64,000 bases of DNA from a virus. Position 1 is the stretch's first letter; each line of letters begins with the position of its first letter. Shown here one piece after another: positions 20,786 to 32,231 of this stretch. Where the stretch lies: IMG/VR virus record IMGVR_UViG_3300005676_000020, positions 32,001-96,000 of that record; one strand, 5' to 3'. A program made the position numbers and the translations under genes. The notes beneath the pieces are model-generated. The model was not told where the DNA came from. It saw nothing but the letters and a program-made list of their open reading frames with translations, and did not search any database.

Positions 20786-21089
20786 TTTTGGATTTTATCA
20801 TTGCTGAAAAAATAGCCGAATAGCAGGCCAAATCCATAAGGGTGTCATGTACTGACTCGTCCTTTACCTGCAAGGATTTTCCGGCGCTAAAAGACGCTAA
20901 CCTGCTCATTTTGTCCATCATCCTTGTCAGGATTCCGGTTTCTGCAGATATACCCAGACTCTTCACCGACTCAAAGTTGGCAAATGGATTGTCTGAGGTG
21001 TTTGTATAGTCGGAATTTTTAGCCTGTAGCGTATCCAGGCAAGTATCAAAGAAGCTTCCGCAGTGCTTTAAAAAATCGTTTTTATTCAT
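20748..21089 (-). CDS. Nucleotide-modification associated domain 1 (DUF1599, MazG-like) protein
   Basis: KNSDY, F.NF, RMMDKMSRL, DESVHDTLMDLACYS. Confidence 0.8.
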   Translation of the reverse strand: MNKNDFLKHCGSFFDTCLDTLQAKNSDYTNTSDNPFANFESVKSLGISAETGILTRMMDKMSRLASFSAGKSLQVKDESVHDTLMDLACYSAIFSAMIKSKNEEKTLRMDGAL

Positions 21090-21546
21090 GTATTCTACCT
21101 TTAAAAAATCTTAACACATGTCCATTCCAGCTATCGATAAAGATAGCCTTCTCCGTGAAAAGGTAGTGGGTTTCCCAATAAGATAGGCTTTGCCGGTCTT
21201 TACAGAACTTGAGTATGACTCGTTGAAAGCCCTCTGTAGAACCTCTTTTTTTTATGTATTCGAGAAGGGGTTTACAGCTACCCCAGTAATCCTTCCAACC
21301 ACTGTCTTTGTGTTCTACAACCACTCTTTTTCTTGTGCTTTTCCTTGCTTTCTTGCCAAGACGTCTCTTTCTCTTGTGCTGAAAAGCCTTCTTTCCCCAA
21401 TAAGGTATGCCTTTGTCATCTATGATAACGTAGACAAATCCATAGAACCCTTTAGGGGCAACTCTTATCTCTTTCTTCTTGAAAATCCAATTCATAGAAG
21501 GGCGAAGATATTGAATCTCCGCCCTTTTACAAAATTTAAAGTTCAT
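21082..21546 (-). CDS. GIY-YIG-superfamily nuclease
   Basis: YGFVYVI...YWGKK...WKDYWGS...E; true start may be MNWIF. Confidence 0.7.
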   Translation of the reverse strand: MNFKFCKRAEIQYLRPSMNWIFKKKEIRVAPKGFYGFVYVIIDDKGIPYWGKKAFQHKRKRRLGKKARKSTRKRVVVEHKDSGWKDYWGSCKPLLEYIKKRGSTEGFQRVILKFCKDRQSLSYWETHYLFTEKAIFIDSWNGHVLRFFKGRIHE

Positions 21547-22114
21547 CCAATGCTGACTTCAGTAAGTCTTCGATGTATCTCTTCTTCTCGCCTATTGTCC
21601 TGAAAGCTGGCATCTCAGGCTTTCTGGCAAAGGCCCCGGAGATATTCTTCTGAACTCTGATTTCTCCCGGAAGGGAGCTAATCAGCCTTCTCAGCACTGC
21701 ACCCAGGTCTCCTGACAAAGCGTCTGTTTTAACATAGCTCACGGTCAAATCCCTGGTATCTATCCAATCTTCCATTCTTTCGATGTAAAAGACGTCTATT
21801 TGGCCGTCCTTGGTAAGTTCAGCTAAAAGTCCTTTCGCTCCTATGTACGTCTTTTCCTTGTACTTAAAAGCGAAGGGTCTGGAGTACACGTCGATAACTT
21901 CCTCTATTTGAGACCGGGTGAGAGATATTAAGCCGGCACGTTTGCTCGTAGCATAGTACTCGAACTTATTCTCGTTCTCCATAGCCCCTCCCAGAAAATA
22001 GATTGGAAAGTTCACATCAGAATGGTCGAAGTACGTTCCTGAATTTGTCAAGACTGCCCTTTTGACAGCCTCATCAGCATAAGGAACTTGCTTGAATTCT
22101 GCTAACTCAGTCAT
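21536..22114 (-). CDS. Hypothetical protein translationally coupled to E1
   Basis: Overlaps the ThiF stop codon. Confidence 0.7.
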   Translation of the reverse strand: MTELAEFKQVPYADEAVKRAVLTNSGTYFDHSDVNFPIYFLGGAMENENKFEYYATSKRAGLISLTRSQIEEVIDVYSRPFAFKYKEKTYIGAKGLLAELTKDGQIDVFYIERMEDWIDTRDLTVSYVKTDALSGDLGAVLRRLISSLPGEIRVQKNISGAFARKPEMPAFRTIGEKKRYIEDLLKSALDEL

Positions 22115-22832
22115 TGCTGTACATGTTTAGTGGAACCATGTATTCATGGTAAAACGGAAGTTTTCTTATATTCTTCTCCTTTCCTGTGTTAAAAGCCCAG
22201 TTCGTAAGGAACGCCGTCATATGTGAGGCTATCATCGCCGCACAATGCGAAGTCTGCTTAAATGTACAATCCGCCTCCAGAACTTCGTTGTCGCTGAAAA
22301 GGTAATCCTTTTCGTAGCGGTCCATGTTCTCTGTACTGTCACCGGTAATGCTAAGTATTTGCATGGTCTCTGCCAGGAGTCTGCCGTCCATGAACAAGCA
22401 GTTCCTCCTGTCCTTAGGGTCAAGGCTCTCTACGTGCCGTCTCCAGTTCGCAAAGGCCACCTTTCTTGCAACCATGTTATCAAATCCGCAAAGAACCACA
22501 TCGTTCGTAGGCTCATCCTCGGTGTACTTACCAAAACACTCTACCACACAGTCGGGAGATAGCTCATTGATGAGCTCCTTCATAGCTTCTGCCTTATTCT
22601 TACCTAAGGCATTTTGCTTTACAATCTGACCGGTCATATTATGTTCTTCGTATATGTCGTGGTCGTAAAGATAAAGCTCACAGCCGAGACGGCTGACTAA
22701 AAAGGAAAGGTGAGAGCCTATCCCGCCCTGTCCCAAAATCATAACCGGTTTTTTATAGAGTGAAGGGAACCATTCGGCTCCCTTCATTCTTGCATACTGG
22801 CCCGGAACAACCAGTTCTTTTTCTTCTGTCAT
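22107..22832 (-). CDS. ThiF/E1-like ubiquitin-activating adenylyltransferase
   Basis: LGQGGIGS, YDHD..EEHN..GQ, NKAEA, GFDN..AR, DGR, candidate catalytic Cys in EADCTFK. Confidence 0.92.
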   Translation of the reverse strand: MTEEKELVVPGQYARMKGAEWFPSLYKKPVMILGQGGIGSHLSFLVSRLGCELYLYDHDIYEEHNMTGQIVKQNALGKNKAEAMKELINELSPDCVVECFGKYTEDEPTNDVVLCGFDNMVARKVAFANWRRHVESLDPKDRRNCLFMDGRLLAETMQILSITGDSTENMDRYEKDYLFSDNEVLEADCTFKQTSHCAAMIASHMTAFLTNWAFNTGKEKNIRKLPFYHEYMVPLNMYSND

Positions 22833-23830
22833 ACTTCTGAGTCTTGATAATCGTATTTTGCCAGGTCACGGAAACATTCTCCCAGGTCTTCAGTCGCATC
22901 GGCGTTAACCATGTGATAGTTATCTCTCAGAATCCTGGAGGCAGTTTCACAGGTGTTTTTGTAGCGCCTGAGTCCAGGGTCGCTTTCGAACCAGAAGCGG
23001 TAAGCCTCTCCACTCCTCTTTCTTATGCGGTCTTTTACAACCTCTTTCTCCTGCTTGGTTTTATCATCGTACTCGTTCAGGAGTTCGATGATGCTTTTTC
23101 CGCAGTTGACTTCTCCGGAGAGCAGATGTCTGATATAATTATACATTCCTCTCTCAACCTCTGAACCTTTTGGAGTTTTGCTTTTCTTGGTCTCAGAAGC
23201 CGTGCGAAAAAATCCTGAATCGGAAGTACCTCCGGGGGACTTCCTGGCTTTAATCTCCTGGATTCTTCCATTGACGTCGTCAACAGGGACATTTCCTGGT
23301 AAGGTTATGTCGCAATCGTAAACGAAGATATAAGTCTCTCCGTCAGGAACAACTTCCTGTGCGGGTTCGCCTTTTTCGTTCCGATATTCCAGAAGAGAGG
23401 TTTTCCTGACAGCTCTGAAGGCTATTTTAGCCACCATGTCATTGTAGTTGTTCACTATCAGCGACAGGTATATATTGTGGAATTCAGAGTTCGTTTCGAG
23501 CTCATCAGTATCCGTTCCGGAGAAGAACACTGACATTGAATTATGAGAATGAATATGACCTTTGGTAAGACCAAGCAGATGCTTGTTCTCCATCATATGT
23601 TTCACAATATCCGGCCCGTATTCATACTCGGTGTAGCCGGCAGTACCTATATCCATAAGATACAGTTCTTCAGCGCGGCATTTGAAATCCGGGGTTCCAA
23701 AAGAACCTTCGGTCTTATAGAATAGTACACCTGACCATTCTACATTAGGCACCTGCTTGCAGATGTGGCTTATCTGCATCTGCAGTTTTTCTGATATCTC
23801 CAGAGGCACCCGCATTGGAAGAGTTCTCAT
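22829..23830 (-). CDS. JAB/JAMM (MPN+) metalloprotease with C-terminal extension
   Basis: VEWSG plus exact H-x-H-x7-S-x2-D (HSHNSMSVFFSGTD); start could be 23929. Confidence 0.9.
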   Translation of the reverse strand: MRTLPMRVPLEISEKLQMQISHICKQVPNVEWSGVLFYKTEGSFGTPDFKCRAEELYLMDIGTAGYTEYEYGPDIVKHMMENKHLLGLTKGHIHSHNSMSVFFSGTDTDELETNSEFHNIYLSLIVNNYNDMVAKIAFRAVRKTSLLEYRNEKGEPAQEVVPDGETYIFVYDCDITLPGNVPVDDVNGRIQEIKARKSPGGTSDSGFFRTASETKKSKTPKGSEVERGMYNYIRHLLSGEVNCGKSIIELLNEYDDKTKQEKEVVKDRIRKRSGEAYRFWFESDPGLRRYKNTCETASRILRDNYHMVNADATEDLGECFRDLAKYDYQDSEV

Positions 23831-24842
23831 CTCTAACGAGTCTTTTGTAGACCATGCTTTTGATTTCTTCCCGTACGAACTTCGTGATTTCAGGCCTTGG
23901 GTAATAGGCTTGTTCTGATTTTTTTTCATTAATTACGTCTTTTACTATTGGTTTGTAATGGTGTCCTCTGAAGAACACCCCATGTCCGAAAAGCTCAGGG
24001 TTATTAAGAGCACTTTTGCTAAAATCGTTGTTTATTTCAGGTTCGACATATGTACCTGATTCTGTCCTGAAGCATATGTACTTTTTTCCGTAAGCTTCAT
24101 GGAGCTCTTTGCCGAAAACCTTTTCGAAAGGTGTTTTGATGATAACTTCTACGGAAGGAGAAGTTATAAGAGTCAGGTTTTCTTTTAAGTGACCCTTGCA
24201 TTTTGACAGGACTTCTCTAATATTGTGCTTGTCCGCGTCGGAAAGTTCGTTCTCGTGGACAATCGGCTTAACGGCTTGGTCTTGTCTGACGAAACCGCTC
24301 GAGTCTTCGACATTCTCCCACTCTAAGTATGCTTTCAAAGCTACGGCAAAAGCTTGGAATGGAAGTTCCTCAAACTGAGGTTTATGCCATAAAGCGGGTA
24401 TTATCTTAGACAAAGGGCCACTGCCCATACACACACCTTCAAAGTAACCAGATCCTACTCCGTGACCCATGTTGGCATGAGCATCAGGGACGTCAGTAAA
24501 CGTGGTTCTCGCGAAAATCGGAGCTTGATTGAACGTGCCAGTAGCTATGCTCAAACTAAAGTTCACGAATATATCGTTTACAATCTTCACTCGCTGCTCG
24601 TAGTGACAACGAACGATTATTTCATCGTACCGAACTAGTATAGGAAAGCTACCCCCAGGAAACCTTAGGCCTGCGGAAGCGTTGATCCTGATACATTCAT
24701 CGATATTTTCGTTGTAGCCGTTGATAATCTCGTAGTTCTTTCCGAAGCACCTGTCAAGAGTCTTCTCAATCCTGTCCCACAGATTCTTGTCCCTTTTGTC
24801 CCACTGGTTTCTTAGAGACACTTTTGATATTGCCATTAGCAT
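23745..24842 (-). CDS. Prokaryotic E2-like (UBC-fold) protein B
   Basis: ARTTF...HAN...VCMGSGP (HPN-like motif plus Cys); paralog of 24766..25818; operon context. Confidence 0.65.
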   Translation of the reverse strand: MLMAISKVSLRNQWDKRDKNLWDRIEKTLDRCFGKNYEIINGYNENIDECIRINASAGLRFPGGSFPILVRYDEIIVRCHYEQRVKIVNDIFVNFSLSIATGTFNQAPIFARTTFTDVPDAHANMGHGVGSGYFEGVCMGSGPLSKIIPALWHKPQFEELPFQAFAVALKAYLEWENVEDSSGFVRQDQAVKPIVHENELSDADKHNIREVLSKCKGHLKENLTLITSPSVEVIIKTPFEKVFGKELHEAYGKKYICFRTESGTYVEPEINNDFSKSALNNPELFGHGVFFRGHHYKPIVKDVINEKKSEQAYYPRPEITKFVREEIKSMVYKRLVRDENSSNAGASGDIRKTADADKPHLQAGA

Positions 24843-25818
24843 TTAAGTTTTTAGATAATACAACGTCTTCTATTGCACCTACAACCTGTTTAAGAACGTT
24901 CGGGGAAACTACGTAACCACCGGCCCGTAGTAAGTTCTCTGCCTTATCCGAAGCAATGGTCAGATGAACCCTCTGTCCCTTAAAGACAATATACTTATCT
25001 GGAAACACATGACCCTCCCAACTTCCGGGGGTGTCGACTTCCCTACTTTCCTGAACGTAAGTTTTAGTATAAGGGTCTTTAAGCGCTAAGAGATTAAGGA
25101 ACTTCTGAGCACATATATTCCCTAAAACTAACTCAAATGAGGGAGAAGCTATAACCTTCATGGAATCTCCCTCCTGTACCAGATTCAGATATTTCCATGC
25201 TTCGTGGTTTTTGAGCTCTTTAAGAATTTCGGCTAACTGTTCTTTTGTGGCTGAGGCCACTGCAGGAGTTTTGGAGTATCTTTGTATGTTTTCGTACCCC
25301 GGTTCTTCCCATCCAAGGAAGGCCCTCAGTGCAACCAAGAAAGCTTTGAACTTTGGTTCAGTGATGCATCTCCCCTGTTGTACACAACAACTGTCGAAAA
25401 CATCGTTAATAACACCATTTCCGGTACACAAACCATTAAACTTGTGTATTATCTTCGGGGCGTTAGGATGCGAATGAAGGTAACCACTTGTATATTCGTG
25501 GTAAGTAGCTTTCGTCCTGGCCACGTAGAACCTGAGATGCGGCATGAAAAGACCGTCGTTTTTTACAAAGAACCTTACGTATACATCTCGGATGACATGA
25601 CTTCGCTTATGTACGTTTGTAACTTCTATCGAGTCATACCGGACGGTCACCGGTGTCATATTCATACGAGAGGTTACCATTTCCGGATAATGCCGTTGCT
25701 CCGAACGCATTTGACTCCACTCCTCTTCAGTAACTTTCTCAGGGAAGTCAAAGTTCCCCTCTCCGAAGAAATCTTTAAGACATTTAGTTATGATTTCCCG
25801 GGTATTTTTGTTGACCAT
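24766..25818 (-). CDS. Prokaryotic E2-like (UBC-fold) protein A
   Basis: ARTKAT..GYLHSHPN...LCTGNG, F.AF.VAL.A.L.WE; operon context. Confidence 0.7.
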   Translation of the reverse strand: MVNKNTREIITKCLKDFFGEGNFDFPEKVTEEEWSQMRSEQRHYPEMVTSRMNMTPVTVRYDSIEVTNVHKRSHVIRDVYVRFFVKNDGLFMPHLRFYVARTKATYHEYTSGYLHSHPNAPKIIHKFNGLCTGNGVINDVFDSCCVQQGRCITEPKFKAFLVALRAFLGWEEPGYENIQRYSKTPAVASATKEQLAEILKELKNHEAWKYLNLVQEGDSMKVIASPSFELVLGNICAQKFLNLLALKDPYTKTYVQESREVDTPGSWEGHVFPDKYIVFKGQRVHLTIASDKAENLLRAGGYVVSPNVLKQVVGAIEDVVLSKNLNANGNIKSVSKKPVGQKGQESVGQD

Positions 25819-25857: not shown

Positions 25858-26145
25858 TTAGACAACCTCTCCACTTTTAACCCTTATCGGGGTAAGGAAA
25901 AGAGTCAGTTCCTGTTCTATGACACTCTCCTCCGTTAACAAATCTTCGTCTCTTTTCAACTCGTTTTGGTTTTCTCCTACCACTACTTTCATACCTTCAT
26001 AGTTAACACCTTGAATGGCAAGCTCTCTTTTGAGTTGACCGAAGGTCTTTGCCGTAGAATCAAAAGATGTTTGGCATGTACCGCTGGTATTATACACGGT
26101 AATTTTCCTTGTTGGTTGCTCTTTCGGAGCGAATTCCTGGGACAT
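25858..26145 (-). CDS. Ubiquitin-like (beta-grasp) modifier precursor ending KSG|EVV
   Basis: RKITVY-strand, TFGQLKREL-helix, L..D..L, LFL..KSG pattern; first gene of the E2-E2-JAB-E1 run. Confidence 0.75.
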   Translation of the reverse strand: MSQEFAPKEQPTRKITVYNTSGTCQTSFDSTAKTFGQLKRELAIQGVNYEGMKVVVGENQNELKRDEDLLTEESVIEQELTLFLTPIRVKSGEVV

Positions 26146-26161: not shown

Positions 26162-26881
26162 TTATTTCCAGTCTATTTGTTGGTGGTCGCTGTGCTTTAC
26201 GATAAAATTCACTTTAGAGAACACTTTTTCATGTTTCCATTTCCTTTCAGCATGAGCGGCAGCGGCCGGATGTTCCGTTTTTATTATATAATGTTGTAAG
26301 GGATTCACATACCTTGCATAATACTGACTTTCCTTCCCGCAAAAGACGAGGGGCAACCCGTTATGTTCTTTAAGCACTTCCTCACAGAAGTACTTCATAA
26401 ACGGTTCCCACAATCTTATCTTTTTGTCCAGAACCCTAACCATAGAATGAGAATTCGGCCGGTTAAGCTCTACAGTAAGTGCAGTATTCAACATCATAAC
26501 TCCCTGACGACACAAGTAACTGAGGTCAGGATTTCGTGACCCTTTAATCTTAAGGTCTTCTTCCATTCCGTCGAAAAACAGCGAAAGAGAAGGTTGCTCC
26601 TCTTTGGTTATCGAACAGGAAAGAGCTATTCCATCGGCCACGTCCAGGTCTCCTTTTCTCCAGGGATACGGGTCCTGTAAGAAAAAGACACATTTAAGTT
26701 TGTCTTTAGGAGTTTCTCTGAAAGCTCTAAAGGTGTTCTGCCATGCCGGCAGAACAATCCTTCCTTGAGAGCTTCTGTTTCTGAGGTGGTCGTATATCCC
26801 GTCGCATGAGGGACTCTCAATGAATTTCTTCAAAGAGGGCCCCCATGTTCCGAGAAACTCACCAAACTCCTGGTAGTCCAT
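26162..26881 (-). CDS. ung: Uracil-DNA glycosylase family 1
   Basis: QDPY, ADGIALS, PSL, QGVMMLNTALT, HPAA. Confidence 0.93.
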   Translation of the reverse strand: MDYQEFGEFLGTWGPSLKKFIESPSCDGIYDHLRNRSSQGRIVLPAWQNTFRAFRETPKDKLKCVFFLQDPYPWRKGDLDVADGIALSCSITKEEQPSLSLFFDGMEEDLKIKGSRNPDLSYLCRQGVMMLNTALTVELNRPNSHSMVRVLDKKIRLWEPFMKYFCEEVLKEHNGLPLVFCGKESQYYARYVNPLQHYIIKTEHPAAAAHAERKWKHEKVFSKVNFIVKHSDHQQIDWK

Positions 26882-31912: not shown

Positions 31913-32231
31913 ATATAAGACTACACCAATACTGGTGTCCCTTCAGGGCCTCCGCCCTTGTGGAGTATCTTTCCACTACGTCGCCACCTAAACCCCCAGT
32001 AAATATACAAGTCTCGTAAAGTTGAGGTTCTCCTTTAAGCCAGTTATGATCTATACCAAGGAATACGGTGCTTATCATAAAGTCACCTTTGCGAAAGACA
32101 CCTACAAACCTCTTCGGATCGTCATAACTGAACTTGGTAGCGAACTCTATCACATCCTCGGTAGGTACGTGATTTCCTTCTTCGTCCAGGTAGTAGTATC
32201 TGAGCTTTACCTGGTCATCATTCTTTTCCAT
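31905..32231 (-). CDS. Phage hypothetical protein (STVFLGIDH...ET..F)
   Basis: Recognisable phage motif; function unknown. Confidence 0.7.
   Translation of the reverse strand: MEKNDDQVKLRYYYLDEEGNHVPTEDVIEFATKFSYDDPKRFVGVFRKGDFMISTVFLGIDHNWLKGEPQLYETCIFTGGLGGDVVERYSTRAEALKGHQYWCSLIYA

Follow-up and report, generated by a model that had tools for sequence, protein, structure and literature searches.

Tandem duplication of a candidate Ubl-transfer gene in one clade of crAss-type phages

Phages of the crAss type are among the most abundant viruses of the gut. The 64,000-nucleotide stretch of DNA analysed here (the window; positions 32,001 to 96,000 of IMG/VR virus record IMGVR_UViG_3300005676_000020) comes from a crAss-related phage, whose viral record spans 142 kb and is rated complete. 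It carries a cassette for a ubiquitin-like protein (Ubl), an E1-type enzyme, a JAB protease and a further protein, here called X, for which two genes (X1 and X2) lie side by side. To our knowledge, the systems of the Ubl-E1-E2-JAB kind described up to now are defences of bacteria against phages (Bil, CBASS, Bub). The Ubl-E1-X-JAB cassette is owned by phages and fixed in the replication module of crAss-type genomes, and the locus raises the question of what X is and what its two copies do with one shared Ubl, E1 and JAB. The new finding is the tandem duplication of X in one phage clade; it is real, conserved and specific to this lineage, and X is the component of the cassette that is understood least.

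A tandem pair of X genes in one clade

An earlier note, made from the sequence of the window, had described X1 and X2 as tandem, diverged E2-like paralogues that both keep a cysteine. The paralogy and the cysteines were borne out: BLASTP aligned the two proteins with an E value of 2e-10 (24% identity over 264 columns), and C131 of X1 aligned with C138 of X2. Most of the shared blocks listed for the pair were reproduced (VRYD.I.V, D..V.F, ART, C.G.G, F.AF.VAL.A.L.WE and F.G), and one, given as SPS..V, was slightly off and reads SPS.E. Across all 142 kb of the genome, exactly two copies of X were found and no third. The pair sits between the Ubl-like precursor gene and the JAB and E1 genes, within six minus-strand genes that run head to tail from 26145 to 21536 (the 95-aa gene, X1, X2, the JAB/JAMM protease, the 241-aa ThiF-type E1 and a 192-aa gene). 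The X1 and X2 genes overlap by 56-77 nt, according to the choice of X2 start (24821 or 24842). The features of the locus are listed below.

25858..26145, minus strand: Ubl-like precursor, 95 aa, ending ...LFLTPIRVKSG followed by EVV after the predicted cut; assigned by its cassette position and conserved KSG
24766..25818, minus strand: X1, upstream copy, 350 aa, with a model of predicted local distance difference test (pLDDT) 83 and VIA matches to UBC/UEV/RWD folds; N-terminal UBC/RWD-like domain from 1 to about 185, family-specific C-terminal domain at about 190-330
23745..24842, minus strand: X2, downstream copy and X1 paralogue, 365 aa from ATG 24842, or 358 aa if the start is GTG 24821, as called in the sister phage
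25426..25428, minus strand: TGT codon of X1 Cys131, the candidate active site
24429..24431, minus strand: TGT codon of X2 Cys138, aligned with X1 C131
22829..23929, minus strand: JAB/JAMM metalloprotease, start uncertain (the sister-phage call starts at the equivalent of 23752)
22107..22832, minus strand: minimal ThiF/MoeB-type E1, 241 aa (Pfam ThiF 3e-14)
21536..22114, minus strand: 192-aa gene, with an 8-nt overlap with the E1 stop

A copy-number check in relatives, which the earlier note had proposed, revealed one X in most phages and two in a single clade. Two X genes were present only in the window, its near-identical sisters (loci L066 and L067) and four further loci (L003, L006, L069 and L071), in comparison to a single-copy sample that is biased, having been drawn with a pattern from single-copy clades. 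The two-copy phages were assigned to one clade because they share a DUF6915 gene, a uracil-DNA glycosylase (UDG)-like gene, the 192-aa gene and a SegE-type endonuclease gene. A quick maximum-likelihood tree united every copy from the two-copy phages in one group (Shimodaira-Hasegawa-like approximate likelihood ratio test, SH-aLRT, 86) and placed the downstream copies together (SH-aLRT 92); the stem branch of X2 was long. In L069, the upstream copy fell among the downstream copies, and the branches were long; thus, the tree gives no clear orthology for the upstream copies. A single old duplication is the simplest reading.

Homology between X1 and X2 was detectable, and both copies are under purifying selection, looser than that acting on their neighbours. 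In comparison to the sister phage L066, the ratio of nonsynonymous to synonymous substitution rates (dN/dS) was 0.22 for X1 and 0.22 for X2, versus 0 to 0.12 for the neighbouring genes. The replacements clustered at equivalent places in the two proteins, namely the insert that separates helix 1 from strand 1 and a C-domain loop at about 260-275, a pattern that would suit evolving recognition surfaces. X was also the fastest-evolving part of the cassette, its orthologues being 26-33% identical where the E1s were 61-73% identical, and the orthologue values are close to the identity of the X1/X2 paralogues. The rapid evolution of X, together with the observation that most relatives manage with a single copy, would be compatible with a duplication without functional meaning, with redundant copies or one copy in decay. 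We consider this very improbable: the pair has been kept with intact frames in at least five diverged phage lineages, both copies share the same dN/dS, and the paralogues are only about 25% identical, which indicates that the pair is old.

A separate observation concerns the divergence within the operon. When window 22107-25818 was compared with L066:5058-8769, the E1 protein was 100% identical (dS 0.014), and X1, X2 and JAB showed dS values of 0.18-0.29 at 90-93% identity. This mosaic reflects either recombination or very uneven rates.

The cassette and the X family

The genomic context was established with small hidden Markov models (HMMs) for five neighbouring genes, which were run on every fetched locus. 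The set of about 50 loci comprised 41 IMG/VR loci, several Logan contigs, and the genomes of Bacteroides phage crAss001, uncultured phage cr106_1 and Flavobacterium phage FpV4. The order Ubl-X-JAB-E1 was found in every locus long enough to show it, so that X displays, over about 50 loci, a fixed linkage to E1 and Ubl genes of the kind expected of an E2. The cassette lies between the primase/helicase and UDG/exonuclease genes of phage genomes of 90-142 kb, and it is present in crAss001 (gp79-76), cr106_1 and FpV4 (gp53-50). The only labels given to it in public records are "thiamine biosynthesis protein" and "metalloprotease domain", and our literature search found no paper tying crAss-like phages to Ubl, E1 or JAB genes.

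The Ubl-like gene was always located directly upstream of X. Its family (about 45 homologues) shares the motif [FL][LM].P..[VT]K[SA]G, beyond which the proteins extend by 1 to about 200 aa (EVV here), and the combination of a conserved KSG with variable tails is as expected for a putative Ubl made from a precursor. The 95-aa protein itself had no sequence match in Pfam or the PDB. The full JAMM motif of the protease (E64, H127xH129, S137xxD140) was kept in 37-38 of 38 homologues, and its weak matches included Prok-JAB, PADLOC JAB and PRTRC_A, as well as phrog_16107 and phrog_21448. In the E1, GxGGxG, D57/D59, K80, D118-N119, R123 and Cys189 were invariant (38/38); its curated matches were NCBIfam ThiF (the best), MoeB, SAMP-E1 and the E1 part of PADLOC Cap2 (E 5e-10).

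The X family was far larger than the set of loci examined. When 1.84 billion representative proteins were searched in full with HMMER, 1,223 clusters were obtained at E <= 1e-3, and a second search placed them on contigs of phage size, about 130 kb at most; all of the clusters were unnamed. The family is so far phage-only, and no cellular relatives were found among 185,579 species genomes with one narrow pattern of low sensitivity. Neither X1 nor X2 matched any Pfam, PHROG, NCBIfam or PADLOC model. X1 had no match in 50,697 phage records (megablast and tblastn), no cultured phage carrying the pair was found, and single-protein scans of IMG/VR with E1 and with X2 gave no matches. The family cysteine (C131, in the X1 numbering used below) was invariant in 60/60 and in a further 150/150 aligned members (210 in total). 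G133 and E171 were likewise invariant in the 60-sequence alignment, in which N68, D78, R101, H115-S116-H117, W170, F279 and P306 were more than 90% conserved; the second histidine, like the cysteine, was present without exception in the further 150 members. X1 keeps nearly all of these catalytic-type and other family-conserved residues (N68, D78, R101, H115-S-H117, C131, G133, W170-E171, F279 and P306), and X2 keeps the equivalents of H115, the cysteine (C138), the glycine (G140), Trp-Glu, Phe and Pro.

Several side observations were made around the cassette. The 192-aa gene, the product of which had no family match, follows E1 in the window, L003, L006, L066, L069 and L071, and also in L013 and L015-L018. 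Directly after it, at window 21082-21546, lies a gene for a SegE-type GIY-YIG homing endonuclease (Pfam E 9e-20), which occupies the same place in L003, L066, L069 and L071. Directly upstream of the Ubl gene, a 239-aa gene (window 26162-26881) encodes a diverged member of the UDG superfamily (Pfam E 0.002; phrog_12143 E 4e-26), and a UDG gene also adjoins the cassette in crAss001, cr106_1 and FpV4. The JAB gene was split into two open reading frames (ORFs) near the same profile position, just before HxH, in three loci that are not related to one another, L006:8482-10454, L071:1442-2823 and L026 (122 + 321 aa). The two halves in L006 flank a LAGLIDADG endonuclease ORF of opposite orientation; the split could reflect a site that is repeatedly invaded by an intron-like or mobile element. 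In the IMG/VR phage L026 (5610-6616), two tandem Ubl-like genes, both with a conserved part ending in KAG, precede a single X. A terminal MF.FV is shared by crAss001 gp79 (L012:33128-33805), where it forms the far end of the long Ubl tail, and by a 130-aa ORF of cr106_1 located just upstream of X (L011:5174-5566). The latter aligned poorly with the Ubl family, and the Ubl HMM instead matched L011:4291-4638, which ends in KSGKF. Finally, according to precomputed Pfam annotation, the RecA gene of L003 (12079-13101) carries an intein with an HNH domain.

Candidate activity of X and roles of its two copies

The description of X as E2-like found weak support at the level of the fold, where residues 1-185 matched UBC/UEV/RWD proteins at Z 3.5-5.2, and none in sequence or profile comparisons with E2 families. 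The AlphaFold (AF2) model of X1, built from the 60-sequence alignment, reached a pLDDT of 83 and a predicted template-modelling score (pTM) of 0.75; an earlier model from a 3-sequence alignment (pLDDT 53) was too poor and was not used. In alignment-based structure searches, nearly all matches of residues 1-185 were UBC, UEV or RWD domains, including the TSG101 UEV (Z 5.2), Ubc13 (4.4), Ube2S (4.4) and BubB (9eav_D; 4.3), as well as UbcH5, many RWD domains, FANCL and kinetochore RWDs. These alignments covered 110-130 residues (115-130 for the four proteins given with Z scores) at a root-mean-square deviation of about 4 Å. The predicted order of elements fits an E2 (a helix followed by three to four strands, then the HSH loop, the cysteine and further helices), with C131 in the loop after the beta-meander and the more than 90% conserved HSH 14-16 residues before it. 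A permuted cysteine hydrolase of the NlpC/P60 or LRAT-like type, in which a histidine also precedes the cysteine, was set aside, because no such fold appeared among the structural matches while UBC/RWD dominated. Both copies also contain triplets that recall the canonical HPN of E2s, HSHPN-x11-C in X1 (window 25372-25476) and HAN-x13-C in X2 (24423-24491); the resemblance is probably due to chance, since the asparagine is not conserved in the family (consensus HSHL).

The long C-terminal domains reported for the pair are real, and they may act as built-in selectors, as had been suggested. They are not specific to the pair: every single-copy member of the family has one, and the duplication thus did not create this domain. 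An Atlas search with the C-terminal domain returned nothing, and weak three-helix matches (Myb, homeodomain, TnsB-like) were not trusted.

A number of results weigh against X being an E2. All Z scores of the N-domain were at most 5.2, and the tool warns that values below 8 may mean only a common arrangement of elements; a Foldseek search of the PDB with the X1 model returned no match at E <= 0.001. None of the sequence and profile methods tied X to any E2 family. X1 and X2 did not match the curated E2 models (UQ_con, Prok-E2_A-E, UEV, UFC1, Autophagy_act_C, Cap2, BilB), and the UQ_con and Prok-E2_D Pfam models were without a match in the whole genome. A Pfam scan over 179 X members revealed no E2 enrichment, for which reason the one Autophagy_act_C match (E 0.007, 1/179) was treated as chance. 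With hhalign, the X N-domain reached a probability of 0.05% against seven plasmid Cap2 E2 domains, no better than the negative controls; sequence-profile searches of the PDB (A1, A2) gave chance matches only, and the Atlas search with the N-domain produced only a lead with a score of 0.83 to a cluster with 11% Prok-E2_D. Judged by these comparisons, X falls outside every E2 family described so far. Moreover, its invariant polar residues (N, D, R, HxH, C, E) exceed the needs of a plain E2, and could form a metal site or another, more elaborate active site. At the X2 positions that match N68, S116, H117, H74 and G99, the residues are instead C, A, N, K and F, respectively; several of the residues lost in this way are near-invariant.

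A rival reading is that X is no E2 carrier and is instead another enzyme, an acceptor or a scaffold using the E1-activated Ubl, for instance in a ThiS/MoaD-style sulfur-carrier or biosynthetic route tied to the metabolism of nucleotides or DNA, X1 and X2 being in that case two enzymes of this sort. The minimal ThiF/MoeB type of the E1, with ThiF as its best curated match, points in this direction, as do the missing E2 profile match of X, the potential of the conserved HxH, C and E to bind metal, and a neighbourhood of replication and nucleotide genes that includes a UDG-like gene, an exonuclease gene, a ribonucleotide reductase gene and DUF1599 ("nucleotide modification associated"). However, the N-domain matched UBC/RWD folds almost exclusively, and no rhodanese, cysteine desulfurase, PP-loop ATPase, ThiG or MoaE was found beside the cassette in any locus scanned. 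The Ubl, moreover, ends in a single glycine after KS with long removable tails, a pattern typical of conjugated Ubls. We regard a non-carrier role as unlikely, while giving it appreciable weight.

Our preferred reading, to which we give an even chance, is that X is the E2-type Ubl-transfer enzyme of the phage cassette, duplicated, with both copies functional and serving two target sets or roles, most likely two target specificities. The JAB protease would trim the Ubl precursor after ...VKSG, removing EVV in the window, and the ThiF-type E1 would adenylate the exposed glycine and load the Ubl on Cys189. By thioester transfer, the Ubl would then move to the cysteine of X (C131 in X1, C138 in X2), in the loop after the beta-meander of the UBC/RWD-like domain. 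X may itself attach the Ubl to lysines of its targets, no separate E3 being needed, the target being picked by the C-terminal domain and the variable insert; in line with the earlier note, the Pfam zf-RING_2 and HECT models had no match in the genome. The duplication would have occurred long ago in one clade, both copies being fed from one supply of Ubl, E1 and JAB. A fuller version, put forward tentatively and in our judgement rather doubtful, is a branched pathway in which the single Ubl, E1 and JAB feed two fast-evolving E2/E3 hybrids that tag different host or phage proteins. Its variable insert and C-domain loop would be evolving recognition surfaces, and one possible use is against host defences.

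The changes in X2, set amid a kept cysteine, glycine, Trp-Glu, Phe and Pro, suggest that this copy may be altered in function, yet it is no pseudogene. X2 could be a catalytically weakened partner that regulates or positions X1, as the UEVs Mms2/Uev1 do for Ubc13, instead of working independently as a second enzyme. The replaced N68, S116, H117, H74 and G99 equivalents in the window lineage, the long stem branch, the gene overlap and the very probable co-expression of X1 and X2 would all fit such a role. In contrast, X2 keeps the invariant residues named above, most downstream-copy orthologues keep HxH, the dN/dS of X2 equals that of X1, and classical UEVs are without a cysteine; a weakened partner is, in our view, improbable. 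A complex prediction for X1 and X2 scored 0.02, a value that bears neither for nor against binding; the results likewise speak neither for nor against the E2-to-E2 relay that the earlier note had raised as an alternative.

If X is the predicted transfer enzyme, the two-copy clade may aim one tag at two target sets. The duplication amounts to a natural experiment, as X1 and X2 share one Ubl, one E1 and one JAB, and a comparison of their conjugates would reveal the basis of target choice in a system that is free of E3, and whether X is a transfer enzyme at all. Its main value therefore lies in offering a handle for testing target choice.

Comparison with known systems

Ubc13-Mms2/Uev1 consists of an active E2 and a diverged E2-like partner, the UEVs lacking the cysteine. 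Similarly, the two diverged UBC-like paralogues of the window could act together, X2 having drifted at conserved positions; unlike the UEVs, X2 keeps its cysteine, and its pairing with X1 is hypothetical. In CBASS, Cap2/Cap3 are an E2-E1 fusion and a JAB protein; there is no free Ubl, and the CD-NTase is the conjugated species. The phage cassette resembles CBASS in its JAB partner and in the E1 adenylation core, which matches Cap2 models (PADLOC E 5e-10), whereas the Cap2 E2 domain has no profile similarity to X. In contrast to ThiS/MoaD systems, the Ubl terminus is KSG rather than GG, and no sulfur donor or acceptor genes were present among the scanned neighbours.

Bil is a bacterial anti-phage defence composed of the BilA Ubl, the BilB E2, the BilC JAB and the BilD E1 (PMC10557695; bioRxiv 10.1101/2023.09.04.556158; as summarised in PMC11601596). 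It has no E3 gene, and its E2 is proposed to select the targets on its own (PMC11601596). The phage cassette likewise has the same four predicted roles on separate genes, no E3 gene and an expected cysteine chemistry. It differs in being carried by a lytic-type phage in the replication module rather than in a bacterial defence island. The phage E1 has 241 aa and one adenylation domain, versus the IAD-AAD-CYS layout of the Bil E1, and its match to PADLOC BilD reached only 7e-5 and spanned about 90 residues. X, for which no sequence match to BilB was obtained, possesses an extra 150-aa C-terminal domain and is duplicated in the window clade.

In Type I Bub (BubAB, BubCD, BubE), the Ubl precursor is cut after a conserved glycine by the JAB of the operon, the E1 is of the minimal homodimer type (ThiF/UBA5-like), and BubB is a diverged UBC fold (PMC11601596). 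Bub further features Ubl-E2 and JAB-E1 fusions and serine/tyrosine oxyesters (PMC11601596). Similarly, the phage Ubl precursor has a conserved glycine at the predicted cleavage point, the E1 is minimal, and BubB is among the fold matches of X. In contrast to Bub, the four genes are unfused, the E1 (C189) and X (C131/C138) carry an invariant cysteine, and DUF6527/BubE was not found in a Pfam scan. Taken together, the phage cassette resembles Bil in gene content and Type I Bub in its precursor Ubl and minimal E1, and it is set apart from both by phage carriage, by the unclassified two-domain X and by the two X genes of the window clade.

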